From a virus, in IMG/VR virus record IMGVR_UViG_3300043411_000610, positions 1 through 64,000 of that record: a stretch of 64,000 nucleotides of DNA; one strand, given 5' to 3'. Position numbers and translations under genes: made by a program. Every line of letters starts with the position of its first letter. Positions within the stretch are counted from its first letter, which is position 1. Below are positions 8,719 through 21,509 of the stretch, piece after piece. The notes beneath the pieces were generated by a model, which had not been told where the DNA came from, made no database searches, and saw only the letters and a program-made list of their open reading frames with translations.

Positions 8719-9237
8719 TCAGAATATATCTTGATTATCAATCACTGATTTTAACTTTGAAATATCGTTTTCCAGTGCTAGATTGAAGATTGGAATTCTA
8801 AAATCTTTTGCCATTCTGATTCCCTGTCCAGTGCCACCTTTTTCTTTACCACCGGGTGTCCAACAAATAACAAATTCAGGAACAACTATACACTTAGGAC
8901 CAAGTATGATGTGGCTATTACGGGCCATCAGTTTTTTACCAGATTCGGTCAATCTATCCCATTTTGGATGATATTTTTCTGCCAATTTTAGTGCAGTATT
9001 TGAAAATCCATACAAAGGCGATTTATTATCATTATAATTAGGCCACGGCAAATATATTTCCTTGTCTCCACCATATAGATCAAAATATTTTTCAAACATT
9101 TGATCCGCACCCGATGCTCCACCAGAACGTAGAGTATAACCCGAATTAACTAGTTTATAACACAACGATTTGATCAGTGGTTCAACAGCAGAAGGTGTTA
9201 CTCTTGATCCTATTCCTGTAAAATATTTTTTAATCAT
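8719..9237 (-). CDS. DprA/SMF-like (SLOG superfamily) protein
   Basis: FTGIGSR-x-TP, LRSGGA-x-GAD, EIYLPW, ARN, GGTGQ, IPIFNL motifs. Confidence 0.8.
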   Translation of the reverse strand: MIKKYFTGIGSRVTPSAVEPLIKSLCYKLVNSGYTLRSGGASGADQMFEKYFDLYGGDKEIYLPWPNYNDNKSPLYGFSNTALKLAEKYHPKWDRLTESGKKLMARNSHIILGPKCIVVPEFVICWTPGGKEKGGTGQGIRMAKDFRIPIFNLALENDISKLKSVIDNQDIF

Positions 9238-10247
9238 CTTAATGTTACCCCTAATGTTTGTTCTAGTGCATCTCTAATACCAGATTGAATTTTATCTATG
9301 TCTGCATTAGTCAATGTTTTGTCAATACTTCTATATGAAATACGATAACATTTGCTTGTTTTACCATTCTTAGTGAATTCATCCTTTAATGTAATATCTT
9401 CGATTAAGTCCTTTGACATGGACCTACAAATTTCAAAGAAATGATTTTCTTCATATGTCGGACTAATCCAGAAAGAAATATCTTTATAACATACTGGTTG
9501 ATTTGAATAGGTTTTGAATATTGTATCACCGTTATTAAACTGTGATAGAAATCGAGTGTCAGTCGTCCAAAACAGTCGAATATCAGGAATCTTATATAAG
9601 ATCATTGCTAGGCGTTCTAGTCCTAATCCAAAAGCAAATCCATGTTTATTAATACCACAGTTTTTGAGAATATCTTGATGAATAAGCCCACAACCAAGGA
9701 CTTCTACTAATTTATTATCCCATTCAATTTCTACTTCATATGATGGTTGTGTAAAAGGAAAATAGGAATCAATCCATTTATATGTTGCACCAGGGAATAA
9801 TGAGGCGATCAATTTATCAATAATATTGTTTAATACACTTAGTGCATCATCTCTAGAATCGAAAAGTGCAACTGCTTCCATCTGGTGAAATACCGGATAG
9901 TGAAATTTGTCCACACTATCTCGGCGGTAAACATCCCCAACAACAATAAATTTTTCAACCCCTTGTTTTAAAAACGTTGTCTGATGAGCACTGGTATGGG
10001 TTCGCAATACAGTGGAATTATCTAAATAGAATGTGTCGCTCACACGTCTAGAGACATGATCAGAAGGGATTAGAAGATCGTCGAAGTTTTGTTGTGTGCT
10101 AACAATTGGATTGCTATCCTCAAATATCTCAAAATGTAAATTATTAAGTAATACATTAATGATCTTTTGTTTGATCAGACATATAGGATGATTGTTTAGC
10201 AGATGTAGATTTCTACCTATACAGTTGGATATATTTTCTGGTATCAT
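9234..10247 (-). CDS. pheS: Monomeric mitochondrial/plastid-type phenylalanyl-tRNA synthetase (catalytic domain plus C-terminal FDX-ACB anticodon-binding domain)
   Basis: NFDDLLIP-x-DH-x-SR, LRTHTSAHQ, GDVYRRD..HYPVFHQME, FPFT-x-PS-x-E, GLGLERLAM..IPDIRLFW, then KDISFW..CYRISYRS. Confidence 0.93.
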   Translation of the reverse strand: MIPENISNCIGRNLHLLNNHPICLIKQKIINVLLNNLHFEIFEDSNPIVSTQQNFDDLLIPSDHVSRRVSDTFYLDNSTVLRTHTSAHQTTFLKQGVEKFIVVGDVYRRDSVDKFHYPVFHQMEAVALFDSRDDALSVLNNIIDKLIASLFPGATYKWIDSYFPFTQPSYEVEIEWDNKLVEVLGCGLIHQDILKNCGINKHGFAFGLGLERLAMILYKIPDIRLFWTTDTRFLSQFNNGDTIFKTYSNQPVCYKDISFWISPTYEENHFFEICRSMSKDLIEDITLKDEFTKNGKTSKCYRISYRSIDKTLTNADIDKIQSGIRDALEQTLGVTLR

Positions 10248-10250
10248 AAA

Positions 10251-10862
10251 TCAAACCAATTCCTCCCGAACCCGCATCAGTGCTCGGCCAAGCAAATTTT
10301 GTCCCCTCCATTTATCTATATCACCTGCATCTGGATGATTATCACCTAGACCAATCCCCCATATAGAATCGACCGGAGATGCTTCTGCTAAAATATATTG
10401 TCCGGTTTTAACCAATAGTTCTTTAAGTTTAGGATTTTGTGCAAATTTTTGTTTATTGATCATCGTCACCAACCCAAGTTTTACTTTATCCCAGTGGGCC
10501 TGATCATAGTTTTTAACCTGTCTTCCAAGGTCTTTCGCATCTTTTGGATGGACAGTGTTTAAAATCTGATTAGCAGTATTCCAATCACGGAATATAATAG
10601 CCTTACCAAACATCATTGCATGTTCAGCAGTTGTAAACGTATGTTGATAACCGTCCCAAAAATCATCGGTAAATTCAACATCAAATTCGGTAAGAAATTC
10701 GTCATAATCTGTCCAATGTCGGAAGAACGGATTCCACTCACTGATATCAATTTTAAACGGGGCGGTTAATCCATCAGATAATGCACCGTGCCATTGACTG
10801 AATTCTTTTTTATAAAAAAGAACGATGTTGTTTACTACAGGATAGGTATTATATGTTTTCAT
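10251..10862 (-). CDS. NADAR (YbiA-like) family protein
   Basis: FSQW, TAEHAMM..KA..F-x-D, K-x-LGRQV, KF-x-QN, EASP-x-D-x-IWGIG, GQNLLG..LM-x-VR. Confidence 0.92.
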   Translation of the reverse strand: MKTYNTYPVVNNIVLFYKKEFSQWHGALSDGLTAPFKIDISEWNPFFRHWTDYDEFLTEFDVEFTDDFWDGYQHTFTTAEHAMMFGKAIIFRDWNTANQILNTVHPKDAKDLGRQVKNYDQAHWDKVKLGLVTMINKQKFAQNPKLKELLVKTGQYILAEASPVDSIWGIGLGDNHPDAGDIDKWRGQNLLGRALMRVREELV

Positions 10863-11296
10863 CAGATTGTTATTGTTTTTGGGAAATATATTTGTTTGTT
10901 CAAAGTTTTGGCATAGTTACAAACAGTAAAATGCCAGTGCCAGGGTTTTGAAACACCTAGATCATCTGCAATGTAGTCTAGCACGGAACACTGGCAACGC
11001 AACATAAAAATTCGATAATTTTTAGTCTGACCGCCCACATGAATAAAAGGTGAATAGTTTATTGAGATTTTTGTGCCGTGCCACTGATCAAGCAAATTAT
11101 GATCAACCTGTCCATGTATTTTTTCATTAACTATCGTCAGATGCGCTGAATGCATTGGTGTATTACACTCAATCCAAAGTTCTCTTTGAATTAACCATTT
11201 ATAATATTCAATAAAATCGTGTGAAGTATGGACACGTAGGTTATATCCATCACGTTTGATAATGCCATGTATTTCTAAGTTAAAGTTTTCGCCCAT
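10862..11296 (-). CDS. 2H phosphoesterase-like protein
   Basis: Two H-x-T motifs (AHLTIV, WHFTV) about 70 aa apart. Confidence 0.65.
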   Translation of the reverse strand: MGENFNLEIHGIIKRDGYNLRVHTSHDFIEYYKWLIQRELWIECNTPMHSAHLTIVNEKIHGQVDHNLLDQWHGTKISINYSPFIHVGGQTKNYRIFMLRCQCSVLDYIADDLGVSKPWHWHFTVCNYAKTLNKQIYFPKTITI

Positions 11297-12024
11297 GTCA
11301 AATATATTTTGTCCAAATCAGTTCCATAAAATGAACTGCTTTCAAACGAATTGATTTCTAATAAAAATAGTTTACCACCAGACTCACATATGTCAATAAC
11401 GAAATTTGGTTCGTTAATAAAATACTCGGAATCCGCAATTTTAGATGCTAATTTTTGAACACCTGATGGACAACCGGGTTCGACCTCAACAAAGTCATTA
11501 CCTTTCATATACAGACAACCATCAACAAAGGTTTGATTAATGAAAACAGTTCGCCATTCCCTATCAATTTTTTTGATTGGAGCACTGACGCACATTAGAT
11601 CGTTTGAAAAATTGAGATTTTTTGTCAAATAATTATATTCTTGTATAAATTTTTCTTTTGTCAAAAATACTTGGCCTGCAAAAGATTTATATGGATCTGC
11701 CGGACGTAGATAAAGCGGATAATCATATTCCGAATAATAGTGTGCATAATAACCTAGATCGTTGAAAACCGTATGTCCGGGGGACAAAATATATTTTCTA
11801 AAAATAGGTATCCAAGACTTACAATCTGCAAAATTGTAGTTAAATTTAAATCTTTTTGCAAAGTTTAATGATCCTCTGAAATTTATTGGAGGTCTAGGAA
11901 TATCAATATAATTATTTTTGTCCAATATAATAGTATCAAAGTGATTTTGAATTGTGGACAAATATGTGGGATTATTTTCTTCTTCCCAAAATAAATCTAG
12001 TTGTATATGTAATTTAGGTTTCAT
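11275..12024 (-). CDS. ATP-grasp domain protein (DUF4343/R2K-like)
   Basis: YLRP..K-x-F-x-GQV, REWR..F, FVIDI, LEINSF..S-x-FY. Confidence 0.75.
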   Translation of the reverse strand: MKPKLHIQLDLFWEEENNPTYLSTIQNHFDTIILDKNNYIDIPRPPINFRGSLNFAKRFKFNYNFADCKSWIPIFRKYILSPGHTVFNDLGYYAHYYSEYDYPLYLRPADPYKSFAGQVFLTKEKFIQEYNYLTKNLNFSNDLMCVSAPIKKIDREWRTVFINQTFVDGCLYMKGNDFVEVEPGCPSGVQKLASKIADSEYFINEPNFVIDICESGGKLFLLEINSFESSSFYGTDLDKIYLTWAKTLT

Positions 12025-13522: not shown

Positions 13523-14374
13523 ATGTTATATAAAATTGAATTACTATACAAGTGTAAAGAAGATTCTGACGGATGCGGTCATATGTGGAACACCACACAA
13601 TGGACTAACCATCGCGAAAAGGAATGTGTGGGTGGTAGGCCATGGTTATATACTGCTAACTGTAGTAGATGTCAGACGGAATGCTCATATCTTGAATATG
13701 ATATTACTGAATTTAACCAGAAATCATTTGGGCTAATGTGTGCAGTTCCTAGGTGCATCAATAGATACAGTGATATTGCACATGTTTATACCGAACATTG
13801 GAATCAGATTTTTACACACGGGTCTATGTCAAAATCAACAAATCATGACGGTCTCAAAATTATTGGTAATAGACATGTTATTAATGGGGATGTATTAGGG
13901 TCATATCAAAAAAATAAGGAAACAGTTAGGCTGAACACTAGCATAATAGCAAAAAAACTGGTCAACGATTATATAGATGAATGTTGGCTATCAATCGAAC
14001 CACAATTTAGTATCAGAGAAGTATTGTTACATGAACTCAAACATTGGTTTGATCACCAAACCGGGTATTTGGATAGTAATAATGTTAATAGTATGTCTGA
14101 TTATAAAGGATATGTAAATTCTAAGAATGAATTATCAGCCAATATTTTTACTACGGTCGATATTTTATATAGCTGTTTAGGCAAATCTGTCCGGGAATTG
14201 TCTGCATATAGAGAAATGGTAAATCGACTTTCTGTTTCATTTAAACGGATAACTGCTATTGAGAATTATAGCAATTATATATCTAGTCTTCGAAATTGTT
14301 GGCGAAAGACTGTCGGAACAAATATAAAATTTCCAATTAAAATATTTCAATTTTTATCAGGTCAAATTACATAA
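13523..14374 (+). CDS. Putative zinc metallopeptidase-like protein with Cys-rich N-terminus
   Basis: HExxH (LLHELKHW) followed by Y..S-x-NE-x-x-A. Confidence 0.55.
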   Translation: MLYKIELLYKCKEDSDGCGHMWNTTQWTNHREKECVGGRPWLYTANCSRCQTECSYLEYDITEFNQKSFGLMCAVPRCINRYSDIAHVYTEHWNQIFTHGSMSKSTNHDGLKIIGNRHVINGDVLGSYQKNKETVRLNTSIIAKKLVNDYIDECWLSIEPQFSIREVLLHELKHWFDHQTGYLDSNNVNSMSDYKGYVNSKNELSANIFTTVDILYSCLGKSVRELSAYREMVNRLSVSFKRITAIENYSNYISSLRNCWRKTVGTNIKFPIKIFQFLSGQIT

Positions 14375-14392
14375 ACATTTTTCAAAAAGTTC

Positions 14393-14421
14393 TTGACATG
14401 CACAATCTGATGAAGTAAACT
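14393..14421 (+). promoter_or_regulatory. Sigma70-like promoter heading the tRNA operon
   Basis: TTGACA-17 nt-TAAACT; a TAAATA motif follows at 14443. Confidence 0.75.
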
Positions 14422-14457
14422 AGAAAAGTAAAACAAATTTAATAAATAGAAAAACAG

Positions 14458-14568
14458 ATGAGACGGAAACATACATATATTAATTGCCTCTGGCAACAAT
14501 CACCGAGTAATTTGGTGATGCCAAAAGGCACGAAGTATAGTTCCGAGAGATTTGGAAAAGATACTTAA
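14458..14568 (+). CDS. Putative 36-aa leader peptide of the tRNA operon
   Basis: MRRKHTYINCLWQQSPSNLVMPKGTKYSSERFGKDT*; overlaps long hairpin TGCCT..ATCACCGAG-TAA-TTTGGTGAT..AGGCA. Confidence 0.5.
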   Translation: MRRKHTYINCLWQQSPSNLVMPKGTKYSSERFGKDT

Positions 14569-14610
14569 AATCCGGTGAAATGATAAATCCGGAGTAAATT
14601 TAAAAAGTTT

Positions 14611-14773
14611 AACTACCGGGTGTTTCAAGGTTTCCCAAAATACGAAAAACTGAAAGAATGGTTATCACTGTCAAAAGGTGAAATGTCAGCAAACACGGAA
14701 ACTCACGGGAAATGGGTGTTTGTATGAAAAGGCCGCTATCGGAAACGATAAGAAGTGAGATAGTATAGTAGTT
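14611..14773 (+). ncRNA. Unassigned structured RNA (~165 nt)
   Basis: Closing stem AACTAC/GTAGTT, GCAAACAC/GTGTTTGT stem, TATCG-GAAA-CGATA tetraloop hairpin, GTTTCC/GGAAAC cross-pairing. Confidence 0.55.
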
Positions 14774-14780
14774 CTTTAAT

Positions 14781-14856
14781 CCGCATGTGTCTGAATAGGT
14801 ATAGAGACGACCCGATAAGTCGTAATAAAAAGGTGCAAGTCCTTTCGTGCGGACCA
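14781..14856 (+). tRNA. tRNA-Ile(GAT)
   Basis: CCGCATG/CGTGCGG acceptor, ACGAC-CCGATAA-GTCGT anticodon arm (C at 33), CCA end. Confidence 0.85.
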
Positions 14857-14865
14857 ATTTTTAAT

Positions 14866-14957
14866 GGGTATGAGGCGTAGCGGGAGTATGTGACGCAGGT
14901 GACTGTAAATCATCAACATAAGAACCATAGCAGATTCGAATTCTGCCATACCCACCA
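14866..14957 (+). tRNA. tRNA-Tyr(GTA)
   Basis: GGGTATG/CATACCC, GGTGA-CTGTAAA-TCATC, TTCGAAT T loop, CCA. Confidence 0.92.
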
Positions 14958-14963
14958 ATTTTT

Positions 14964-15089
14964 GAAAACGTAGTATAAATGTAAAATACGTAGCATAGTA
15001 AGCACACGGGTCCACCGAACGGACTATGTATCCAGTCTCCAGTAGAAATGCTGTAAGCCCGTATGGAGGTTAAAATCCTCTCGTTAGTA
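14964..15089 (+). ncRNA. tRNA-like RNA with ~50-nt structured insert replacing the anticodon loop
   Basis: AACG/CGTT short acceptor, D arm GTAT/ATAC, stem TAGCAT/ATGCTG enclosing insert, T arm GGAGG-TTAAAAT-CCTCT. Confidence 0.6.
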
Positions 15090-15105
15090 AAAAAGAAGAA
15101 AGTAG

Positions 15106-15134
15106 TTGACAAGTAGAAGAAGATAAAGTAATAT
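15106..15134 (+). promoter_or_regulatory. Internal sigma70-like promoter
   Basis: TTGACA-17 nt-TAATAT. Confidence 0.7.
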
Positions 15135-15140
15135 AGAAGT

Positions 15141-15233
15141 GCATTAGAACGAGATGTTATCATATGGTCGATATATGATGTTCTGAAACTTGCCACATAT
15201 GGTGGCTTGAGCAGGTTTAAATCCTGCCAATGT
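15141..15233 (+). ncRNA. tRNA-like RNA retaining T arm but with non-canonical 5' domain
   Basis: GCATT/AATGT closure, AGAAC/GTTCT plus ATCATAT/ATATGAT arm, GCCAC/GTGGC hairpin, GCAGG-TTTAAAT-CCTGC. Confidence 0.5.
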
Positions 15234-15249
15234 AGATAGACCTAGAAAA

Positions 15250-15320
15250 TCCCAGGTAGCACAATTAGGAGAGCATGTTACTCGACAGGTTGAGGGGGGC
15301 AGGACCATCCTTGGGAGCCA
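15250..15320 (+). pseudogene. tRNA-Asn-like gene with 5' half of anticodon stem missing
   Basis: TCCCAGG/CTTGGGA-G-CCA acceptor, D arm, residual TGTTA..CGACAGGTT. Confidence 0.6.
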
Positions 15321-15330
15321 AATTTTAAAT

Positions 15331-15416
15331 GCAAGTGTGGGTCAACTGGTTTGGACCAACGGACTTTTAATCCGTGGAGAAATCTTATGTGGGTTCGAGT
15401 CCCACCACTTGCACCA
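15331..15416 (+). tRNA. tRNA-Lys(TTT) with long variable region
   Basis: GCAAGTG/CACTTGC, ACGGA-CTTTTAA-TCCGT, 13-nt variable region, TTCGAGT, CCA. Confidence 0.88.
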
Positions 15417-15458
15417 AAATTTCTTGTAATAAGATTCGTGCAACACTAAATAAGTTGT

Positions 15459-16484
15459 ATGGCCAAGTGTGAAAATTGTAATGTTGACTTGATAAAAAAT
15501 GAAAAGGGTAAACCTAAGAGGTTTTGTTGTAAAACCTGTAAAGGCAAATATTACCGAGAGTATGGAAGAAAACTTCTAAATTCTGAAGAAATTGATGAAA
15601 TACAGAGATTATATGATACGGGGCTAAGTTTATCACAGATATCCAAAATATCCAAGTATTCAAAAATGTTGTTGTGGAGCCTATCATCTGCAAAGGTTAT
15701 AAAAATAAGAAACCGTGCAGAAGCATCCCGAATATCTAGCACAGGTAAAAAGTTATCACAAGAATCTAAGGATAAAATATCAAAAGCTCGTAAAAAATTC
15801 TTAGAAGAAAATCCAGATAAAGTTCCATATAAATTGAACCATAAATATTTAAAACAATCATTTCCAGAAAAGTATTTTGTTGATTGTTTTGGTGGAAAAT
15901 TTAAACCACAATACCAATTTGGTTCGTATACATTAGATTTTGCGGATATAGAAAATAGACTAGACATTGAAATAGATGGGTGTCAGCATCACTTAGATCC
16001 AAAAATCGTAGAGCACGATATAAAAAGAAATCAATTTTTGAATGAAAATGGGTGGAAGGTATTAAGAATACGGTGGAGCGAATTTAAAAAATCTCAAAAA
16101 GATGAGCAGAAAGAAATAGTAAATACTATTCTTCAAGATAGAATCCCAATTCACCCAGCAATCACCTTTTATCCACATGATTCTTCCATTTCAGATGAAG
16201 CATTCCAACATATTGTGTATAAAAAAGAAAATAAAGTGTGTGATAAATGTGGATTGGTGAACAATAGCAAATATTCAAGTTTTTGTGAAAACTGTATATA
16301 CCAAAACAGGATAAAAATCAAGTGGCCTACAGTCGAGGAAATGACTGAACTTGTTTGGAAAACACCAACAACACAAATAGCAAAAGATATGGGCATATCA
16401 GATAATGCGATAACTAAATTTTGTAGAAAAAATAAAATTGCAAAGCCAGGATGTGGATATTGGCAAAAAATGATTACGAAATAA
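15459..16484 (+). CDS. Putative homing endonuclease (DUF559/Vsr-like nuclease with zinc-finger, NUMOD3-like and HTH segments)
   Basis: YTLDFAD..LDIEIDG..H..DIKRNQFL...GW-x-VLRI-x-W; CxxC pairs; KLSQESKDKISK. Confidence 0.85.
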   Translation: MAKCENCNVDLIKNEKGKPKRFCCKTCKGKYYREYGRKLLNSEEIDEIQRLYDTGLSLSQISKISKYSKMLLWSLSSAKVIKIRNRAEASRISSTGKKLSQESKDKISKARKKFLEENPDKVPYKLNHKYLKQSFPEKYFVDCFGGKFKPQYQFGSYTLDFADIENRLDIEIDGCQHHLDPKIVEHDIKRNQFLNENGWKVLRIRWSEFKKSQKDEQKEIVNTILQDRIPIHPAITFYPHDSSISDEAFQHIVYKKENKVCDKCGLVNNSKYSSFCENCIYQNRIKIKWPTVEEMTELVWKTPTTQIAKDMGISDNAITKFCRKNKIAKPGCGYWQKMITK

Positions 16485-16640
16485 TTTCATAAGTTTTATT
16501 ACAGATTGTAGCTCCATAATAAAACTTCAAGTAATAATGTTACTATTTGACAATCACTACAAATGATGTTAAGGTTAGGATATTAAAGTCGTGAGAGTCG
16601 ATGGCTTCGATGCAAGCTCGGAGAAATAGAATTTTTAAAT

Positions 16641-16728
16641 TGCAGGATAGTGTAATAGTTAACATATCTGGCTCATAACCAGAAGACGGAAATCGTTTAT
16701 GGTGGTGCAAATCCATCTCCTGCTTCCA
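16641..16728 (+). tRNA. tRNA-Met(CAT), initiator-like 1:72 mismatch, with long variable arm
   Basis: TGCAGGA/TCCTGCT, TCTGG-CTCATAA-CCAGA, AGACG-GAAAT-CGTTT extra arm, CCA. Confidence 0.85.
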
Positions 16729-16737
16729 TTTTCAAAA

Positions 16738-16809
16738 GCCTCTAGGTAGGAGAAGTCTCCTAATTAGTTTCATATGCTAATAATAAACGAGCATTACGTT
16801 TTAGAGGCA
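16738..16809 (+). tRNA. Atypical tRNA (CAT; Met or Ile2) with 6-bp D stem and 4-nt D loop
   Basis: GCCTCTA/TAGAGGC, TAGGAG-AAGT-CTCCTA, TTAGT-TTCATAT-GCTAA, AAACG-AGCATTA-CGTTT. Confidence 0.65.
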
Positions 16810-16818
16810 CAATTTTAA

Positions 16819-16890
16819 CGGGATGTGGCAGACAAGGAATGCACTTCGTTTGGGGCGAAGCACATGCTGGAGCATTACCAGTCATCCCGA
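16819..16890 (+). tRNA. tRNA-Pro(TGG)
   Basis: CGGGATG/CATCCCG, CTTCG-TTTGGGG-CGAAG. Confidence 0.9.
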
Positions 16891-16904
16891 AATTTTGTAA
16901 AATG

Positions 16905-16943
16905 TTAGTGGTCCGCAGGATAACCACTAGAGAAAACACCTGC
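16905..16943 (+). ncRNA. Small H-type pseudoknot between tRNAs
   Basis: Stem TAGTGGT/ACCACTA; loop GCAGG pairs with downstream CCTGC across A-rich linker. Confidence 0.55.
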
Positions 16944-16956
16944 CCAAATTTTTAAT

Positions 16957-17030
16957 GCCCCTATAGTTAATGAATATAACTACGTCCTTTCACGACGTAA
17001 TACCGAGTGTGAGCCTCGGTAGGGGTGCCA
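16957..17030 (+). tRNA. tRNA-Glu(TTC)
   Basis: GCCCCTA/TAGGGGT, ACGTC-CTTTCAC-GACGT, CCA. Confidence 0.9.
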
Positions 17031-17040
17031 ATTTCAAAAT

Positions 17041-17156
17041 AACGTGATAGTTTAATTAGACCGTAAAATCGGTAATAACATAGAGTGCGCAATCGAAAGT
17101 TATTAGAACGCCGTCGTCCAGATGGAAATATGGTGCAAATCCAATAAACGTTGCCA
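17041..17156 (+). ncRNA. tRNA-like RNA with two extra hairpins inserted in the D loop and a 5-nt anticodon loop
   Basis: AACGT/ACGTT-G-CCA, D stem GTTT/GAAC enclosing ACCG/CGGT and AATAAC/GTTATT, CCGTC-GTCCA-GATGG, TGG-TGCAAAT-CCA. Confidence 0.6.
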
Positions 17157-17165
17157 TTTTTAAAA

Positions 17166-17274
17166 CCTCAAATAGCCTATATTGTTTAAGGCATAATACC
17201 AGACGTGGTAGAGTATTTGATGTGACTTTAAAGCACTAATAATATGCAGGTTAAATTCCTGACTTTGGGGACCG
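17166..17274 (+). ncRNA. tRNA-like RNA with anticodon arm replaced by two non-canonical hairpins
   Basis: CCTCAAA/TTTGGGG acceptor, GCCT/AGGC D arm, TACCA-GACG-TGGTA, long extra arm, CAGG-TTAAATT-CCTG. Confidence 0.6.
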
Positions 17275-17283
17275 ATTTTTAAT

Positions 17284-17361
17284 GGATCATAAGCTCAAGT
17301 AGATAGGCGTCTGTCTTCCAAACAGAAAATATAGTCACTGCAAATGTGACATGATCCTCCA
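17284..17361 (+). tRNA. tRNA-Gly(TCC)
   Basis: GGATCAT/ATGATCC-T-CCA, TCTGT-CTTCCAA-ACAGA. Confidence 0.88.
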
Positions 17362-17371
17362 ATTTTTAATT

Positions 17372-17536
17372 TGATGTTATAACGGTTTAATCCGTGAGAA
17401 AATGATGGACTAAAGAGGCTCTAATCCCGACAGTAGTGAGAGTTGTTAACGACATCAACTCGTCCACCTGAACAAAAGTTCGTAACATCACTGGCTACAT
17501 GAATTGACATGTGAAAGGGGAATAAAGTAGTCCCCT
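17372..17536 (+). ncRNA. Unassigned structured RNA (~165 nt)
   Basis: TGATGTTAT-AAC/GTT-C-GTAACATCA, TGGAC/GTCCA, GAGTTG/CAACTC, ACATG/CATGT and AGGGGA/TCCCCT stems. Confidence 0.6.
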
Positions 17537-17581
17537 CAATTTTTAATTTGACAAACAACAATACATAGTATAACATACCAC

Positions 17582-17824
17582 ATGAACGCAATAAAAATAA
17601 CAGACTTCGTAAATAAAGACAATCTATGCCATTTTCAATTTTATAGAAAAGGATTGATGTATTATTCTGTAAAGAAGATTCAATCCATTGATCACTATAT
17701 TTTTCCGGTAGAAATTTCGGATTTGGCAGATGCAACGATCAACAATAGTGAGAAAAGTTTGATGATGATGCTATATATTCGCAAGGCAATTGAAGATAAT
17801 ACACTGACTAAATTTGATGAATAA
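17582..17824 (+). CDS. Conserved phage hypothetical protein
   Basis: ORF behind TTGACA promoter at 17548. Confidence 0.7.
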   Translation: MNAIKITDFVNKDNLCHFQFYRKGLMYYSVKKIQSIDHYIFPVEISDLADATINNSEKSLMMMLYIRKAIEDNTLTKFDE

Positions 17825-18437
17825 ACAACAAGTATTGGCCTTGAATCGGTCATTTTATCCAATTGGCATAAAAAATTGGACTAAGGCAATGGTAGATATT
17901 TTCAGTGGTGCGGCCTATCCGGTTGATGTTTATTATGGAACTAAAGAAGATGGTTCGCCAGATTTGGAAAATATTGAGACCTTTAATGTGGTTAAAGATT
18001 GGAAAGAATGGATTGAATTACCAATCAGACCATATGATGAATATGTTAATACTCCATCCAGAACATTTAGAGTTCCACCTGTGGTAGTATGTTCGGCCTT
18101 TGATCGAATTGTTTTTAAAAATGTTCAGTTTCCCACAAAAGCAAATATCTGGAAAAGAGATAAATATATTTGTCAATTTAGTGGTAAAAAGTTGACCAGA
18201 GAGGAGTTATCGGTGGATCATTTGCTTCCTTCATCTAGGGGTGGTAAAAACACATGGGAAAATTTAGTAACATGTGATCGTGCGCTTAACGTATGGAAAG
18301 CAGACAGAACACCTAAAGAATGTGGTTTGAATCTTATAAATAGACCAACAAAACCCACAAACGGAATGGTATTTGATTTTCTGAGAAAGGAATGGGAAAT
18401 TTTCCTTTATGGTGGAAAATCAGAATTTGGTGAATAG
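17814..18437 (+). CDS. HNH endonuclease (McrA-like)
   Basis: VLALN..P, NIWKRDKY-x-CQ, SVDHLLP-x-SRGG..TWENLVT..N..K. Confidence 0.9.
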   Translation: MMNKQQVLALNRSFYPIGIKNWTKAMVDIFSGAAYPVDVYYGTKEDGSPDLENIETFNVVKDWKEWIELPIRPYDEYVNTPSRTFRVPPVVVCSAFDRIVFKNVQFPTKANIWKRDKYICQFSGKKLTREELSVDHLLPSSRGGKNTWENLVTCDRALNVWKADRTPKECGLNLINRPTKPTNGMVFDFLRKEWEIFLYGGKSEFGE

Positions 18438-18445
18438 TTTATTTT

Positions 18446-18514
18446 GCAACAATAGTTTAATGGAAAACACTACAAGTCGTAGGATTCGGGTAATCAAGCC
18501 CTGATTGTTGCACC
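18446..18514 (+). ncRNA. tRNA-like RNA with shortened anticodon arm (4 bp plus 5-nt loop)
   Basis: GCAACAA/TTGTTGC, GTTT-AATGGA-AAAC, CTAC-AAGTC-GTAG, bulged T arm. Confidence 0.6.
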
Positions 18515-18522
18515 TTTTTAAT

Positions 18523-18595
18523 GGCTTCTTAGCACAATTGGTAATGCACGGAATTTGTAATTCTGAGATTATCGGTTCGAATCCGATAGAAGCCT
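18523..18595 (+). tRNA. tRNA-Thr(TGT)
   Basis: GGCTTCT/AGAAGCC, CGGAA-TTTGTAA-TTCTG, TTCGAAT. Confidence 0.93.
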
Positions 18596-18599
18596 GATT

Positions 18600-18679
18600 T
18601 TTGATAGTATAGAAATATAAGTGTGTTCCGAAAGACTGATGATCTGGCGTTTCGGTAAATTCGCAATCATCCTATCAAA
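18600..18679 (+). ncRNA. Unassigned ~80-nt pseudoknotted RNA directly 3' of tRNA-Thr
   Basis: TTTGATAG/CTATCAAA, CCGAAA/TTTCGG, loop GATGAT pairs with ATCATC. Confidence 0.5.
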
Positions 18680-18690
18680 TTAGTTTTCCA

Positions 18691-18718
18691 TTGACAAAGT
18701 TTGGTGTTGATGTATAAT
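18691..18718 (+). promoter_or_regulatory. Sigma70-like promoter
   Basis: TTGACA-16 nt-TATAAT, 7 nt before ATG 18726. Confidence 0.8.
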
Positions 18719-18725
18719 GGGACAT

Positions 18726-19142
18726 ATGAATGAACAGTTAAAACAGCAATTTTTAGAAGGCCAGATTTCCATTAAATTGGTTTGTGTGGAGGACAAGGAA
18801 TGGATGATTTCTGAGTTTCCAGAGTTGGTTTTGGCAAATAAATCATTTGATAGTTTTTATCCATATGCAACGGTTCAATGTTATGAGACGGGTGAAAAAC
18901 GACTTACCTGTTTTACTGGGCCGAAAAACAAAATATTTTTTGAGTCGGTTGAGGAATTTCAAACAGCAGATTATAATGAGCATAAAACCTTTGATATTGA
19001 AGTTAAAAAGTGTAAATCTGATGGACAGAGTGTGAAGGTCCACAAAAATGATGAATTTGTATATTTTGGAATCTACAGAATAGAGGTCAGGAACTTTAAT
19101 GAGTTTATAAAAGAATTTAATATGTCGGTGGCAGAAAAGTGA
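18726..19142 (+). CDS. Hypothetical protein; 3' end overlaps tRNA-Trp
   Basis: ORF track 18717..19142; start moved because ATG 18717 lies in the -10 box. Confidence 0.65.
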   Translation: MNEQLKQQFLEGQISIKLVCVEDKEWMISEFPELVLANKSFDSFYPYATVQCYETGEKRLTCFTGPKNKIFFESVEEFQTADYNEHKTFDIEVKKCKSDGQSVKVHKNDEFVYFGIYRIEVRNFNEFIKEFNMSVAEK

Positions 19143-19204
19143 TGCAGCAGTCTCCAAAACTGCGACGAAAGTCTAAGTGGGCGCGATACCTACCCGACAT
19201 GCCA
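19122..19204 (+). tRNA. tRNA-Trp(CCA) with extra variable arm
   Basis: ATGTCGG/CCGACAT-G-CCA, GCAGT-CTCCAAA-ACTGC, GAC-GAAA-GTC. Confidence 0.88.
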
Positions 19205-19218
19205 GTTTAGTTAGTTTT

Positions 19219-19290
19219 GCGGTTATCGTATAAAAGTTATTACATCAGATTGTCGATCTGAATATTGGGTTGCAATTACCCATAACCGCG
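19219..19290 (+). tRNA. tRNA-Asp(GTC)
   Basis: GCGGTTA/TAACCGC-G, TCAGA-TTGTCGA-TCTGA. Confidence 0.88.
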
Positions 19291-19300
19291 CATTTTATAT

Positions 19301-19373
19301 TGCCCTTTGGTGTAATTGGTTAGCACCGGAGATTTTGATTCTTCTAGTCCAGATTCGAGTTCTGGGAGGGCAG
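19301..19373 (+). tRNA. tRNA-Gln(TTG)
   Basis: TGCCCTT/GAGGGCA-G, GGAGA-TTTTGAT-TCTTC. Confidence 0.92.
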
Positions 19374-19384
19374 CTTTGATTTAA

Positions 19385-19456
19385 GGCTGTGTGGCAGAGA
19401 GGTTAGTGCATTGGATTGAAATCCCAACAACCCACGTTCGATTCGTGGCACAGCCA
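19385..19456 (+). tRNA. tRNA-Phe(GAA)
   Basis: GGCTGTG/CACAGCC-A, TTGGA-TTGAAAT-CCCAA (one mismatch), TTCGATT. Confidence 0.8.
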
Positions 19457-19467
19457 GTTTTTCTAAT

Positions 19468-19543
19468 GTTCCTGTGGTGTAATGGATTAGCATAAATCGC
19501 TTCTAACGATTCGGAAAAAGTTCAAATCTTTTCAGGAATACCA
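19468..19543 (+). tRNA. tRNA-Arg(TCT)
   Basis: GTTCCTG/CAGGAAT, AATCG-CTTCTAA-CGATT, CCA. Confidence 0.92.
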
Positions 19544-19550
19544 ATTTAAT

Positions 19551-19629
19551 GGATGTGTATAACCTCACGCTACGAACGTGTAGAAAGTTTAATAGATACA
19601 TGCGGGTGCAAGTCCTGTCACATTCACCA
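19551..19629 (+). tRNA. Rearranged tRNA-Arg(ACG): no D arm at the normal position
   Basis: GGATGTG/CACATTC-A-CCA, CACG-CTACGAA-CGTG only 8 nt after acceptor strand, 21-nt segment with D-loop-like GTTTAATAGATA 3' of it, intact T arm. Confidence 0.75.
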
Positions 19630-19639
19630 AATTTTCAAT

Positions 19640-19716
19640 GCCCCTATAGCCGAATTGGTATAGGCATATGATTTAGGATCATAAATTTGCAGATTCGAGT
19701 TCTGCTAGGGGCACCA
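19640..19716 (+). tRNA. tRNA-Leu(TAG) with short variable loop
   Basis: GCCCCTA/TAGGGGC, TATGA-TTTAGGA-TCATA, 5-nt variable loop. Confidence 0.92.
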
Positions 19717-19726
19717 ATTTCAATAT

Positions 19727-19804
19727 GAGTTAGTGGCGGAACGGTATACGCGGTAGTCTCAAGAACTATTTTCAATGAGAGTTCGAATCTCTCCTAACTT
19801 ACCA
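19727..19804 (+). tRNA. tRNA-Leu(CAA) with short variable loop
   Basis: GAGTTAG/CTAACTT, GTAGT-CTCAAGA-ACTAT, 7-nt variable loop. Confidence 0.9.
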
Positions 19805-19812
19805 ATTTAGAT

Positions 19813-19884
19813 GGGTTTTGAAGCATTTTGGTGATGCACTCGCTTGTGGAGCGATATAACTGAGTTCGATTCTCAGTAGAACCC
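19813..19884 (+). tRNA. tRNA-His(GTG) with encoded G-1
   Basis: G-GGTTTTG/TAGAACC-C, TCGC-TTGTGGA-GCGA. Confidence 0.88.
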
Positions 19885-19895
19885 CAGTTTTTAAT

Positions 19896-19971
19896 GTATC
19901 CTTGGGTGAGTGGTTTATTACCTATCGCTGTGACCGACAAAACTTCGGATCGTAACCAAATAAGGGAACCA
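19896..19971 (+). pseudogene. Degenerate second tRNA-His(GTG)
   Basis: TCG-CTGTGAC-CGA anticodon arm, GGT/ACC D stem, mismatched acceptor and T stems. Confidence 0.55.
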
Positions 19972-19981
19972 ATTCAATAAT

Positions 19982-20058
19982 ACACATAGACCGAGCTAGT
20001 GACCGGAACGCACTGCAAATGCGTAAAATGAAGAGTGCGATCCTTATTATGTGTTCCA
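19982..20058 (+). tRNA. tRNA-Cys(GCA)
   Basis: ACACATA/TATGTGT-T-CCA, ACGCA-CTGCAAA-TGCGT; weak T stem. Confidence 0.78.
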
Positions 20059-20065
20059 ATTTAAA

Positions 20066-20150
20066 AGATCATTGAATATCTGGTGATATAACATACTTGG
20101 AAAGTATGTCGCACCCTCAAAGGTGTAGAGTTCGATTCTCTAATGATCTG
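20066..20150 (+). tRNA. tRNA-Ser(GGA)
   Basis: AGATCAT/ATGATCT-G, CATAC-TTGGAAA-GTATG, long variable arm. Confidence 0.87.
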
Positions 20151-20174
20151 CATCAGTTATATAAATATTATTAT

Positions 20175-20268
20175 GGAAGCGATCCGGCCAGATGAGGAGA
20201 TAGTCTTGAAAACTATTAAAACCGTAATCAATCGTGTTTTGTGAGTGCGAGTCTCACCGCTTCCTCCA
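20175..20268 (+). tRNA. tRNA-Ser(TGA)
   Basis: GGAAGCG/CGCTTCC, ATAGT-CTTGAAA-ACTAT, long variable arm, CCA. Confidence 0.9.
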
Positions 20269-20274
20269 TTTTTT

Positions 20275-20361
20275 GGAAGATGAAATTGAAAGGTTTCAAT
20301 GTTGATTTGCTAAATCAAACGAGCGGCCAAACCGTTTGCGTTTCGAATACGCCATCTTCCT
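20275..20361 (+). tRNA. tRNA-Ser(GCT) with 8/4 fold (allo-tRNA/tRNA-Sec-like scaffold)
   Basis: 8-bp GGAAGATG/CATCTTCC, 6-bp D stem with 4-nt loop, TTGAT-TTGCTAA-ATCAA, long arm, 4-bp T stem GCGT/ACGC. Confidence 0.85.
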
Positions 20362-20404
20362 CATTTTTATTGATTATCATACTATCCCTCACTAAATATC
20401 GTGA

Positions 20405-20626
20405 ATGAAAACCCAATCGTTACTTTTATACGGTGAAATTAAAAAAATTTTACCAGATAACCGATTTACTGTCTATTCAAAGCAAATAGAAAGAGAATCA
20501 TTATGTTATCTATCGGGCAAACTTAAACGCGGACCAAAACCCGCAGAAGGGGATGAAGTTAAATTTGAAGTAGATTCTACCAATTATCAATTGGGTAGGA
20601 TCGTTGCGGTTAGAAATTTAAGATGA
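20405..20626 (+). CDS. infA: Translation initiation factor IF-1 homolog
   Basis: 73 aa; G-x-I..LP..RF-x-V, YLSGKLK, GDEV-x-FE..GRIV. Confidence 0.85.
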   Translation: MKTQSLLLYGEIKKILPDNRFTVYSKQIERESLCYLSGKLKRGPKPAEGDEVKFEVDSTNYQLGRIVAVRNLR

Positions 20627-20805
20627 AAACTGACGATAAAACACTGGTTTGTGCATTACGAATACTTGCGACCGATATTCAGTCTGATGACGGAGTTGCA
20701 AATGCATGTATTGAAGAAGCAGCGAACAGGATTGAGGAATTGCTTGTGATAAAAGGATACTACGACGAAGTATCATCATATATTTTAAAGAGCGGTATAT
20801 CTTAA
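20623..20805 (+). CDS. Hypothetical protein
   Basis: ATGA overlap with IF-1; EEAANRIEEL motif common in small phage proteins. Confidence 0.7.
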   Translation: MKTDDKTLVCALRILATDIQSDDGVANACIEEAANRIEELLVIKGYYDEVSSYILKSGIS

Positions 20806-20843
20806 AGAACTTTTTTGTCTGGTGATAAATAATCTTTATCATT

Positions 20844-21509
20844 ATGGCCGGACTACAAGCATCTCTAAAGACAGCAGCACAAATTTTCAAACAACACGAT
20901 TTTTCTAGACAGCACCAGTTGCGCATTCTAGATCTTTTGAATGTTCCTGATTATGTTAGAAACGAAATAATTGACCTAGAAGGACGTGTTTTTTTAACAA
21001 TTTCTTCAGTTCCTCAAAAATCTATTTCTACAATGGAGGTGCCATTCTTAGGCTTTAAGTTTAGGTATCCTAACATGGTAGAATATCCTGGAACATGGCA
21101 AATTACTTTCTCAACTCCAGCAGATTATCTTGTTAGGAATGCTATTGAGCGTTGGATGAATGATACTGTGAATGAGCAGACTCTATGTGGTGTTGGTGTT
21201 CCTTGTGAATCAACTGCAATCGACTTGGCATTGCTCGGTCCTAGTTGTAATGTTGTTCGTGGATATAGATTAATCGGTGTATGGCCATCAGAAATTGGTG
21301 AAGTTGCATATGATCAATCTTCAACCGAACTAACAACCTTTACAGTGACCTTCACATATCAACGATGGGAACCAATCAATATCAATGATACTGCAATAGA
21401 AGAAGGTAATCAAAATCAAATTGATTCTGTATATGAATCATTTGCATCTACTATTGCCGCAGGAGTTGGCACAAGTTGTAATGGTAAGACTGTGGTTCCA
21501 CGAGTTTAA
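20844..21509 (+). CDS. T4 gp19-like tail tube family protein
   Basis: VPFLG..YP..W-x-ITF, ERWM, Y-x-L-x-GVWP..IGEV-x-Y..FTVTFTYQ-x-W. Confidence 0.8.
   Translation: MAGLQASLKTAAQIFKQHDFSRQHQLRILDLLNVPDYVRNEIIDLEGRVFLTISSVPQKSISTMEVPFLGFKFRYPNMVEYPGTWQITFSTPADYLVRNAIERWMNDTVNEQTLCGVGVPCESTAIDLALLGPSCNVVRGYRLIGVWPSEIGEVAYDQSSTELTTFTVTFTYQRWEPININDTAIEEGNQNQIDSVYESFASTIAAGVGTSCNGKTVVPRV

Follow-up and report, generated by a model that had tools for sequence, protein, structure and literature searches.

Organization of the tRNA array

IMG/VR record IMGVR_UViG_3300043411_000610 is a phage genome assembled as a single contig of 90,677 bp with 34.8% G+C. The window analysed here is its first 64 kb (64,000 nucleotides (nt)), which contains, at positions 14781–20360 of the plus strand, an array of tRNA genes in which several units have the shape of a tRNA and are unable to decode. 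A tail tube protein, a ribonucleotide reductase and HNH endonucleases are among the phage genes of the genome. The array was segmented by us into about 30 tRNA-sized units, most of them spaced by CCA and 8–10 AT-rich bases, and is interrupted by four open reading frames (ORFs), two of which encode endonucleases (Table 1). One of the other two, the 80-residue ORF, returned no relatives in an IMG/VR protein search.

ARAGORN with default settings identified 12 tRNAs and Rfam, at its gathering score, 11. Permissive searches and reading of the sequence added Ile(GAU), Tyr, Gly(UCC), Pro, Trp, Cys, two more Ser, a second CAU tRNA and a D-arm-less Arg(ACG). The array carries intact Ile, Asp, Leu, Lys and His genes; tRNAs for Asn, Val and Ala are otherwise missing, and there is no intact tRNA-Asn in the genome. 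A tmRNA was found neither by the ARAGORN tmRNA search of window and genome nor by Rfam. About nine units of the array are unable to decode, of which an earlier note on this DNA had named six, as a family of tRNA-shaped RNAs that keep their acceptor, D and T arms and have rebuilt or removed the anticodon domain.

All six were found where that note had placed them, on the plus strand among recognizable tRNAs and mostly with the same CCA and AT-rich spacers, and none has a normal anticodon arm. Its descriptions of the individual units also held: the insert of about 50 nt at 14964–15089 measures 53 nt between the anticodon-stem halves; the T arm with novel arms at 15141–15233 agrees with the predicted folds; 15250–15320 is Asn-like, has lost half of its anticodon stem and keeps a fully paired acceptor (7/7) with GCCA; 17041–17156 has two hairpins in the D region, a 5-nt anticodon loop and CCA, but pairs only 5/7 positions of its acceptor and 3/5 of its T stem; 17166–17274 has two non-canonical hairpins alongside a 7/7 acceptor and a 4/4 D stem; and 18446–18514, with a 4-bp arm and 5-nt loop, reaches 31.9 bits against the Rfam tRNA model in a search on its own, with its other arms aligned. 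The list was nevertheless incomplete, as 16902–16947, 17373–17489, 19551–19629 and 19898–19971 are odd in the same way.

Retention of the acceptor, D and T arms proved true only loosely. The gathering score of Rfam RF00005 (29 bits) was reached by 18446–18514 alone, and searches of 250–370 nt gave no tRNA hit at E ≤ 10 for 15139–15236, 15250–15320, 17041–17156 or 17166–17274. A strict scan for a 7-bp acceptor contiguous with a 5-bp T stem and a 7-nt T loop, which has a background of about one hit per kb, recovered 20 other array units and none of the six, although the units at 15250, 17166 and 18446 have 7/7 acceptors. An anticodon arm with a 5-bp stem, a 7-nt loop and U33 is likewise present in 0/6: the loops are of 5, 5 and 4 nt, or the stem has lost one half or is broken, or an insertion of 53 nt is present. 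Except for one T-loop word, no sequence is shared among the six units or between them and the remainder of the genome, and a model of one unit leaves the others unmatched, so that they are not one family. Nor was a coding interpretation retained: four of the six contain no plus-strand ORF of 20 or more codons, 17041–17156 has one 20-codon GTG frame, and 14964–15089 overlaps the last 10 nt of a 27-codon frame.

The proposal that the replaced parts are themselves base-paired found no thermodynamic support in three of the units. Fold z-scores are −2.38 for 15139–15236, −2.74 for 18446–18514 and a modest −1.43 for 17166–17274, but −0.57 for 14964–15089, +0.89 for 15250–15320 and −0.10 for 17041–17156. 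Such scores discriminate poorly between real tRNAs and relics, since a canonical tRNA-Asn of a relative itself has z = −0.19.

Table 1 Features of the tRNA array and of the conserved RNA within it
Feature	Positions	Strand	Basis or remark
Probable mosaic with a tRNA-like frame	14964–15089	+	Last unit of the first transcription unit
Sigma-70-type promoter, TTGACA-17-TAATAT	15106–15134	+	10/12 consensus matches
Conserved tRNA-shaped small RNA, four-way junction	15139–15236	+	Homologues, covariation
P1 closing stem	15140–15144 with 15230–15234
P2 helix, invariant	15145–15150 with 15180–15185		Internal loop GAGAUG..
P2b hairpin	15159–15165 with 15173–15179
Linker AAA	15186–15188
P3 hypervariable hairpin	15189–15209
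P4 T-arm-like hairpin	15211–15215 with 15223–15227		Loop UUUAAAU
Damaged tRNA-Asn(GUU) gene	15250–15320	+	Synteny, sequence reading
DUF559/MTES_1575-type endonuclease with HTH domain	15459–16484		Pfam; one tRNA downstream of 15250–15320
Further odd unit	16902–16947		Outside the earlier list
Composite, Asp-like body with a foreign 5′ piece of ~50 nt	17041–17156	+	Local alignment
Probable fusion of two Leu tRNA genes	17166–17274	+	Local alignment, synteny
Odd unit absent from the earlier list	17373–17489	+	8-bp closing stem; terminator-like hairpin follows
HNH endonuclease	17814–18437		PHROG HNH; inside the array
tRNA-Ile(GAU)-like gene without CUGAU (nt 32–36, including the anticodon)	18446–18514	+	Alignment
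Odd unit absent from the earlier list: mismatched second tRNA-His(GUG)	19898–19971	+	Beside canonical His 19814–19885
ORF for an 80-residue protein			Inside the array
ORF for a 141-residue protein			Inside the array

Related loci and strains

Among GenBank phages (INPHARED), megablast and blastn searches with 14700–20300 found no relative, just two short tRNA-level matches. Relatives of the tail-tube protein in an IMG/VR protein search had at most 35% identity. A profile of this protein retrieved 14 metagenome loci with 38–49% protein identity, several of them with tRNA arrays, and nothing from genome contigs; two further tail-tube relatives, P0001 (98% identity) and P0002 (85%), are left out of the array comparison. 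The locus L081, from a 159-kb contig, is syntenic with the window across the array. It shares the leader region, Ile, Tyr, a homologue of 15139–15236 (twice), an Asn-like unit, Lys, two CAU tRNAs, Pro, Glu, Gly, the 80-residue ORF, the HNH gene, Thr and a conserved element after Thr. Two more loci came from motif scans of IMG/VR, namely L108, in which an array lies beside a homologue of the 1762-residue protein of the window, and L095, which has no tRNAs and no protein in common with the window. Other matches of these looser scans were due to chance, without T arm and closing stem.

Array content varies among strains and relatives. Strains were compared using assembled contigs from sequencing runs only, and joints with sides shorter than 30 nt at 80% likeness were excluded. 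One freshwater and one groundwater run contain near-identical array DNA, and wastewater runs share a smaller part of it. No RNA run was among them, a wastewater run labelled RNA-Seq being probably DNA. Related strains seem to differ in the units that lie between fixed points, most such joints being short-sided and weak.

A conserved tRNA-shaped RNA at 15139–15236

The unit at 15139–15236 is a non-decoding, tRNA-shaped RNA that is real and conserved. It folds into a four-way junction in which the closing stem P1 encloses a long arm (P2 and P2b), a hypervariable hairpin (P3) and a T-arm-like hairpin (P4), and it has neither an anticodon loop nor CCA. Infernal searches and covariation analysis, which the earlier note had proposed, yielded homologues in other phages and covarying helices: five copies are present in four phage contigs, namely the window, L081 (1754–1860 and 1902–2013), L108 (907–1013, minus strand) and L095 (4084–4191, minus strand). 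All five share two invariant blocks of 12–13 nt each, UUAGAACGA(G/A)AUG and GAUGUUCUGAAA, as well as the T-arm-like hairpin with the loop UUWAAAU. The same four-way junction is obtained in 4/5 single-sequence minimum-energy folds.

A covariance model of the family, R1, scores the five copies at 88–110 bits. In its alignment 90.4% of cells pair, against 30–50% with slid partners, and both-sided changes occur in 8/23 pairs (two in P1, three in P2b and three in P4); the observed score was reached by 0/500 shuffles. The six pairs of P2 never vary, so this helix is neither supported nor contradicted. The covariation rests on five sequences, two of them from one contig, and on a model-fitted alignment, which weighs against our interpretation; the support is good, not overwhelming, and 15139–15236 is very probably a selected structured RNA. 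In a strain about 96% identical in the flanks, all listed differences within the RNA fall inside P3, which is there about 21 nt longer.

R1 found nothing significant beyond the five copies in about 1.5 Mb of fetched loci, and none of the 23 IMG/VR loci encoding a phenylalanyl-tRNA synthetase (PheRS; below) contains the RNA. No Rfam family matched it in the window at the gathering threshold, in 14000–21000 at E ≤ 10, or in L095, L097, L100 and L103, and blastn in distant mode left it unmatched among 50,697 phage records. The motif pattern does occur in 11 bacterial contigs, nine of which represent one Alistipes/Rikenellaceae stretch; all lack the T arm and the closing stem, and these occurrences were rejected as chance.

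The promoter upstream of the RNA (Table 1) would start transcription at its first base or 1–2 nt from it. In 3/5 copies, those of the window and both of L081, TTGACA-N17-TA(T/A)(A/T)AT ends 4–5 nt before the first G, the L081 copies having TTGACA-N17-TATAAT at the same distance. Consensus matches are not enriched as a class (23 found, 26 expected), and the argument for the promoter therefore rests on its conservation. The L108 copy has no promoter and begins one base after the CCA of a CAU tRNA, with a canonical tRNA-Asn(GUU) next; the L095 copy has no tRNA within 9.6 kb and lies in a locus with no protein in common with this phage. A tRNA-Asn or its remnant is the gene that follows the RNA in three phages.

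Five units related to ordinary tRNA genes

Possible parents of the remaining units were sought by local alignment to 58 tRNAs from the window, L081, L087 and L108, the null being the best score over all 58 for shuffled queries. An nhmmer search of about 200 kb of related phage loci gave no homologue for any of the altered forms.

Unit 18446–18514 begins 8 nt past the stop codon of the HNH gene and aligns to a tRNA-Ile(GAU) of L087 with a score of 37 (null 95th percentile 33), the sole long gap being CUGAU. Its acceptor, D and T arms align, and 11–13 nt replace the 17-nt anticodon arm; the remainder re-pairs as CUAC-AAGUC-GUAG, so that one deletion explains the 4-bp arm and 5-nt loop. All four helices are intact, with a 7/7 acceptor, and the unit has ACC at its 3′ end. 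L081 lacks it and has Thr directly behind the HNH stop; one related strain has 73 unalignable bases in its place, and another keeps it with 2 differences.

In 15250–15320 the Asn-type ends (UCC..., ...GGAGCCA) are retained together with the discriminator G, part of the D arm and a UGUUAC remnant, whereas, in a non-significant alignment to Asn tRNAs and also by eye, about 5 nt of the 5′ strand of the anticodon stem (nt 27–31) are missing. By sequence reading, the T stem keeps 2–3 of 5 pairs, and the T loop, GGCAGGA, resembles the GGCGGUA of L081. The corresponding position behind the conserved RNA is occupied by a canonical tRNA-Asn(GUU) in L108 (823–897, minus strand) and by an aberrant Asn-like unit in L081 (2025–2105), which has a fully paired T stem and, as the last bases of an 11-nt loop, UUGUUAC, and is similar to the L108 tRNA-Asn (p < 0.002). 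Relative to L081, three acceptor pairs of 15250–15320 have changed and all are still paired, which argues that selection acted on the stem for some of the time since its origin.

The other three units appear composite. In 17041–17156, the 5′ piece consists of a weak acceptor strand and two hairpins, the hairpins being enclosed by a ‘D stem’ formed by GUUU and GAAC, and is followed by an anticodon arm, CCGUC-GUCCA-GAUGG, whose 5-nt loop, on a 5-bp stem, still contains GUC. Its nt 51–110 align over 60 nt, from the D region to the 3′ strand of the acceptor, to the tRNA-Asp of the same array (19219–19291) with a score of 36 (null 95th percentile 34; pairwise p < 0.002), including a 10-nt identity.

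Unit 17166–17274, whose T stem has 4 bp and one extra base and whose 3′ end is ACCG rather than ACCA, resembles the tRNA-Leu(CAA) of L081 (3073–3149) from the D loop onwards (nt 44–108, 65 nt; score 37, null 95th percentile 34; pairwise p < 0.002). The 5′ strand of the anticodon stem is mutated, which breaks the stem, and the loop is 2 nt longer. The first 30 nt, comprising acceptor strand and D arm, show a borderline similarity to the Leu(UAG) of the window (score 26). In L081, Leu(UAG) and Leu(CAA) lie 4 nt apart between Glu and Gly, where the window has 17041–17274, and fusion of two neighbouring Leu genes is the simplest and a probable account of the unit as judged from these alignments. 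A model built from 17166–17274 alone found no homologue, only real tRNAs, with a best match of 25.6 bits to 19640–19716, indicating that the unit is tRNA-derived.

Unit 14964–15089 scores 20.1 bits on the Rfam tRNA model and was called as Ser-AGA by ARAGORN at a relaxed threshold only. It has a D stem (GUAU/AUAC), a T arm (GGAGG-UUAAAAU-CCUCU), anticodon-stem halves UAGCA and UGCUG and an acceptor of 5/7 pairs without CCA. Borderline matches relate its 5′ part to the L081 tRNA-His, its middle to the D-3′, anticodon and variable region of the tRNA-Lys of the window and its 3′ part to the T arm of tRNA-Met; it is probably a mosaic of tRNA gene pieces, the weakest of our assignments. An intron was considered and rejected: 46–53 nt is far below the size of a group I intron, and no choice of splice sites yields a credible anticodon loop.

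The stretch 15001–15332, which holds two of the units, carries 34 substitutions and 18 gap positions in one related strain, where stretches of canonical tRNAs differ by 1–2.6%.

Origin of the non-decoding units

On balance we think it probable that the six units form two groups, one conserved RNA gene and five by-products of tRNA array turnover. The by-products would arise in a tandem array that turns over rapidly and is broken up by homing-type endonuclease genes, and would derive from ordinary Ile, Asn, Asp and Leu, possibly also His and Lys, tRNA genes: 18446–18514 and 15250–15320 would have been inactivated by short deletions in the anticodon arm, and 17041–17156, 17166–17274 and 14964–15089 by fusion of pieces of two genes. 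The relics are probably still transcribed and cut out with their neighbours. The earlier note had set the units apart from simple decay and had suggested, as one of several roles, that they display aptamer-like inserts. For four of them, however, ordinary tRNAs for Ile, Asn, Asp and Leu are the nearest relatives or occupy the syntenic position, and the long inserts align to pieces of other tRNA genes, which points to a fusion or mosaic origin rather than to aptamer-like additions. All six are tRNA-shaped or tRNA-derived and unable to decode, and 15139–15236 is in addition a selected RNA; for the altered forms of the five relics no evidence of selection was found. Because deletions and gene fusions readily yield ‘rebuilt’ anticodon domains in fast-evolving arrays, shape alone is no evidence of new function, and the relics are a caution that tandem tRNA arrays generate tRNA-shaped units.

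Several observations weigh against this interpretation of the five units. The lesions of at least five units (those at 15250, 17041, 17166, 17373 and 18446) fall specifically in the anticodon arm, as the earlier note had emphasized. Two of these cases need only one short deletion, and we attribute the bias in part, although this is not demonstrable, to ascertainment, because units damaged elsewhere would not look like tRNAs. All helices and 7/7 acceptors are kept in 18446–18514 and 17166–17274, the acceptor of 15250–15320 remained perfect through its three changed pairs, and CCA ends and spacers are retained, as would fit a selected, processed, non-decoding RNA. Alignments to the parents lie just 2–4 points over the 95th percentile of shuffles, with the matches of 14964–15089 below it. 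Phage genomes tolerate little junk, and about 900 nt of it would sit here.

Several of these features would fit the proposal of the earlier note that all six units are selected, processed, non-decoding tRNA mimics, whose acceptor/T half would sequester anticodon nucleases, tRNA-modifying toxins or uncharged-tRNA sensors and leave translation undisturbed. The phage also carries a NADAR protein and a single-chain PheRS, candidate counter-defence or translation genes, and phage tRNAs are known to counter tRNA-cleaving defences (PMC10264068, PMC11555353). The intact helices of 18446–18514 and 17166–17274, the retained CCA ends and the position of 18446–18514 beside the HNH gene keep such a function under consideration, but we regard it as unlikely for the six units together: in the relatives examined no altered form is conserved, 18446–18514 being missing from L081 and replaced in one strain; three units, whose acceptor or T stems contain mismatches, are no more stable in their folds than shuffled sequences; the inserts match other tRNA genes, which is what fusions would produce; and the stretch holding two units is the fastest to diverge between strains. 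The anticodon-arm deletions could instead be cleavage-resistant alleles or repair scars of the homing-type endonucleases of the array, the target being the adjoining tRNA gene, of which a copy with the recognition sequence deleted survives and lasts while the endonuclease is active. The proximity of 18446–18514 to the HNH gene and of 15250–15320 to the DUF559/MTES_1575-type gene would fit, as would the slot between HNH and Thr, which is empty in L081 and holds 18446–18514 here and 73 other bases in a related strain; the T4 array likewise contains a homing endonuclease, segB. Yet the fused units adjoin no endonuclease gene and a pattern cannot rest on two deletions of about 5 nt, which leaves this explanation improbable. 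That the odd units are working tRNAs of unusual architecture, still decoding and perhaps served by translation factors of the phage, is largely refuted and exceedingly improbable, as none of the six has, by sequence reading, a stem-closed 7-nt loop with U33, the loops being of 4–5 nt or the stem broken. What speaks for it are the D-arm-less Arg unit and the CAU unit with a 6-bp D hairpin, both conserved in relatives with intact 7-nt anticodon loops, the mitochondrial-type single-chain PheRS that the phage encodes and the otherwise missing Asn, Val and Ala tRNAs.

For the conserved RNA itself, transcription from its own sigma-70-type promoter would begin at the first base of the closing stem, and its 3′ end would be set by the RNase P cut at the 5′ end of the next unit. 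P1 stacked on P4 would imitate the acceptor/T half of a tRNA, with a long arm of invariant sequence at the D position and a hypervariable hairpin at the anticodon position. A stable mimic of this kind would most likely occupy a protein that recognizes the acceptor/T half of tRNAs, candidate partners being a tRNA-targeting nuclease of the host or an enzyme of tRNA processing or modification; alternatively, the RNA may protect and organize the 5′ end of the tRNA transcript. On this model the mimic and the 5′ protective or processing role seem about equally likely. That the RNA is solely a cis-acting 5′ cap and not a trans-acting mimic, shielding the triphosphate end from 5′-end-dependent decay and positioning RNase P for the first tRNA (Asn), is possible but doubtful. 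It would suit the 3/5 copies that begin at a predicted transcription start and the Asn tRNA or remnant that follows in three phages, but not the promoterless L108 copy, which lies inside an array right behind the CCA of another tRNA, nor the L095 copy with no tRNA within 9.6 kb, and a protective hairpin would not need invariant blocks of 12–13 nt. A broader proposal, that 15139–15236 and its homologues are a new, horizontally spreading class of phage tRNA mimics, with the anticodon-less units derived from Ile, Asn, Asp and Leu as younger decoy recruits, is in our judgement rather unlikely. As part of this proposal, the closing stem, T arm and invariant long arm would bind an immune nuclease of the host that targets tRNAs, or the sensor of such a nuclease, and P3, at the anticodon position, would be the element exposed to arms-race selection; if true, it would also suggest a function for the RNA C of phage T4.

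Comparison with known RNAs

That phage tRNA arrays can contain small stable non-tRNA RNAs has been recognized in T4 since the 1970s. The T4 genes rnaC and rnaD, for RNAs of 139 nt (RNA C) and 119 nt (RNA D), are annotated directly after tRNA-Arg in the array, beside the homing endonuclease gene segB, and the roles of RNA C (species 1 RNA) and RNA D are still unknown (PMC3014915, PMC9697503). Like 15139–15236, RNA C is a non-tRNA unit of about 100–140 nt that lies head to tail with the tRNAs of a phage array and near a homing endonuclease gene. In its predicted fold (z = −4.57), a closing stem is combined with a long arm, a hairpin of 10 bp and, beside the 3′ strand, a canonical T arm, giving the same four-way layout, which is backed by covariation here and is a prediction only in T4. 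No sequence homology was found between the two; RNA C lacks the invariant blocks, has a canonical UUCGAAU T loop in contrast to the UUWAAAU of the family, and differs from it with respect to the own promoter seen in 3/5 copies of the latter. R1 aligns only to the 3′ two-thirds of RNA C (20.7 bits), with the wrong 5′ partner and register, and RNA C is therefore an analogue, not a member of the family. Thus 15139–15236 adds a second family of small non-tRNA RNAs in phage tRNA arrays, with the same layout as that of T4. Its homologues in four contigs, covariation, invariant blocks that resemble a protein-binding surface and strain-variable arm provide handles for experiments.

Prokaryotic and phage tRNA pseudogenes and fragments include incomplete cloverleaves that escape gene finders or are misclassified by them (bioRxiv 10.1101/2022.07.05.498093), a description that fits 15250–15320, 17041–17156, 17166–17274 and 18446–18514. 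In contrast to these, several relics stand here in register in one array with acceptor stems, CCA and spacers kept, and should therefore still be excised as RNAs. The tRNAs of T5 and other phages counter tRNA-cleaving defences as decoding substitutes (PMC10264068, PMC11555353); these too are found in arrays of large lytic phages and have changes focused on the anticodon loop, but they retain a 7-nt loop and still decode, and are substitutes rather than decoys. A non-translating tRNA-like RNA with a phenotype is known in the tRNA-Other of Bacillus cereus (PMC3399842), which, likened here by description only, differs in being chromosomal and single-copy. The 8/4 and 9/3 acceptor/T tRNAs of bacteria and phages indicate that deviant cloverleaves can be functional and phage-borne (PMC5389517); they keep a normal anticodon arm, unlike all six units.

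Other units of the array and flanking genes

Of the odd units outside the earlier list, 17373–17489 encloses a Lys-like anticodon arm that lacks 3 nt (score 33, null 95th percentile 32) and an Asn-like piece with UGUUAAC (28 against 30). The second tRNA-His gene, 19898–19971, matches the L081 tRNA-His (nhmmer E = 7e-5) and was called by ARAGORN at a relaxed threshold only. The D-arm-less unit at 19551–19629 belongs to a tRNA-Arg family with members at L087:8466–8557 and L084:13090–13175 (both minus strand), in which just 6–8 nt separate the acceptor from a lengthened anticodon arm and a 3-bp helix covaries (AAC/GUU, AGA/UCU, CGG/CCG); its different anticodons in the three phages (ACG, GCG and UCU) suggest that it still decodes.

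Three tRNAs have individual peculiarities. The second CAU tRNA, at 16738–16811 (L081 about 2290–2365; z = −4.53 in the window), has the T loop AGCAUUA and a 6-bp D hairpin with a tetraloop, which L081 keeps with A-U in place of G-C. U at tRNA position 33 is universal; the tRNA-Ile(GAU) at 14781–14856, which scores 52 bits on Rfam and was missed by ARAGORN, has the loop CCGAUAA with C at this position, and its L081 orthologue has U33. The ORF 18717–19142 overlaps the tRNA-Trp(CCA) at 19122–19204, which begins 21 nt ahead of the stop codon, has an acceptor of 7 bp and ends in GCCA. Among the related loci, L088 contains a 107-nt five-arm tRNA-shaped RNA (10549–10655, minus strand; z = −3.39), and a 101-nt odd unit in which ARAGORN reads a four-base anticodon, AUAA, is present on the minus strand of three loci (L087:4888–4988, L088:9907–10007 and L089:3080–3180).

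Two further non-coding regions are shared with L081. A leader of about 340 nt (14440–14780) upstream of the first tRNA, matching L081:1041–1255 (E = 2e-8), contains many hairpins and ends in a −10-like TATAGT directly before tRNA-Ile. Between tRNA-Thr and the next promoter, an element at 18598–18680 is kept as L081:5555–5630 (nhmmer E = 4e-6); it is not tRNA-like, and its terminal stem, as judged by eye, differs in sequence between the two phages yet stays paired.

The single-chain PheRS-like protein (9234–10247, minus strand; 337 residues) combines a class II core F domain (193 bits) with an FDX-ACB anticodon-binding domain. Homologues of the PheRS with 39–56% identity occur in 23 IMG/VR contigs, including giant-virus bins. 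The array is flanked by minus-strand genes for the NADAR-domain protein (10251–10862; 158 bits) and for an ATP-grasp R2K protein (11275–12024). A 73-residue protein encoded at 20405–20626 on the plus strand also flanks the array and has a weak IF-1/eIF-1A match (25 bits, below the cut-off).

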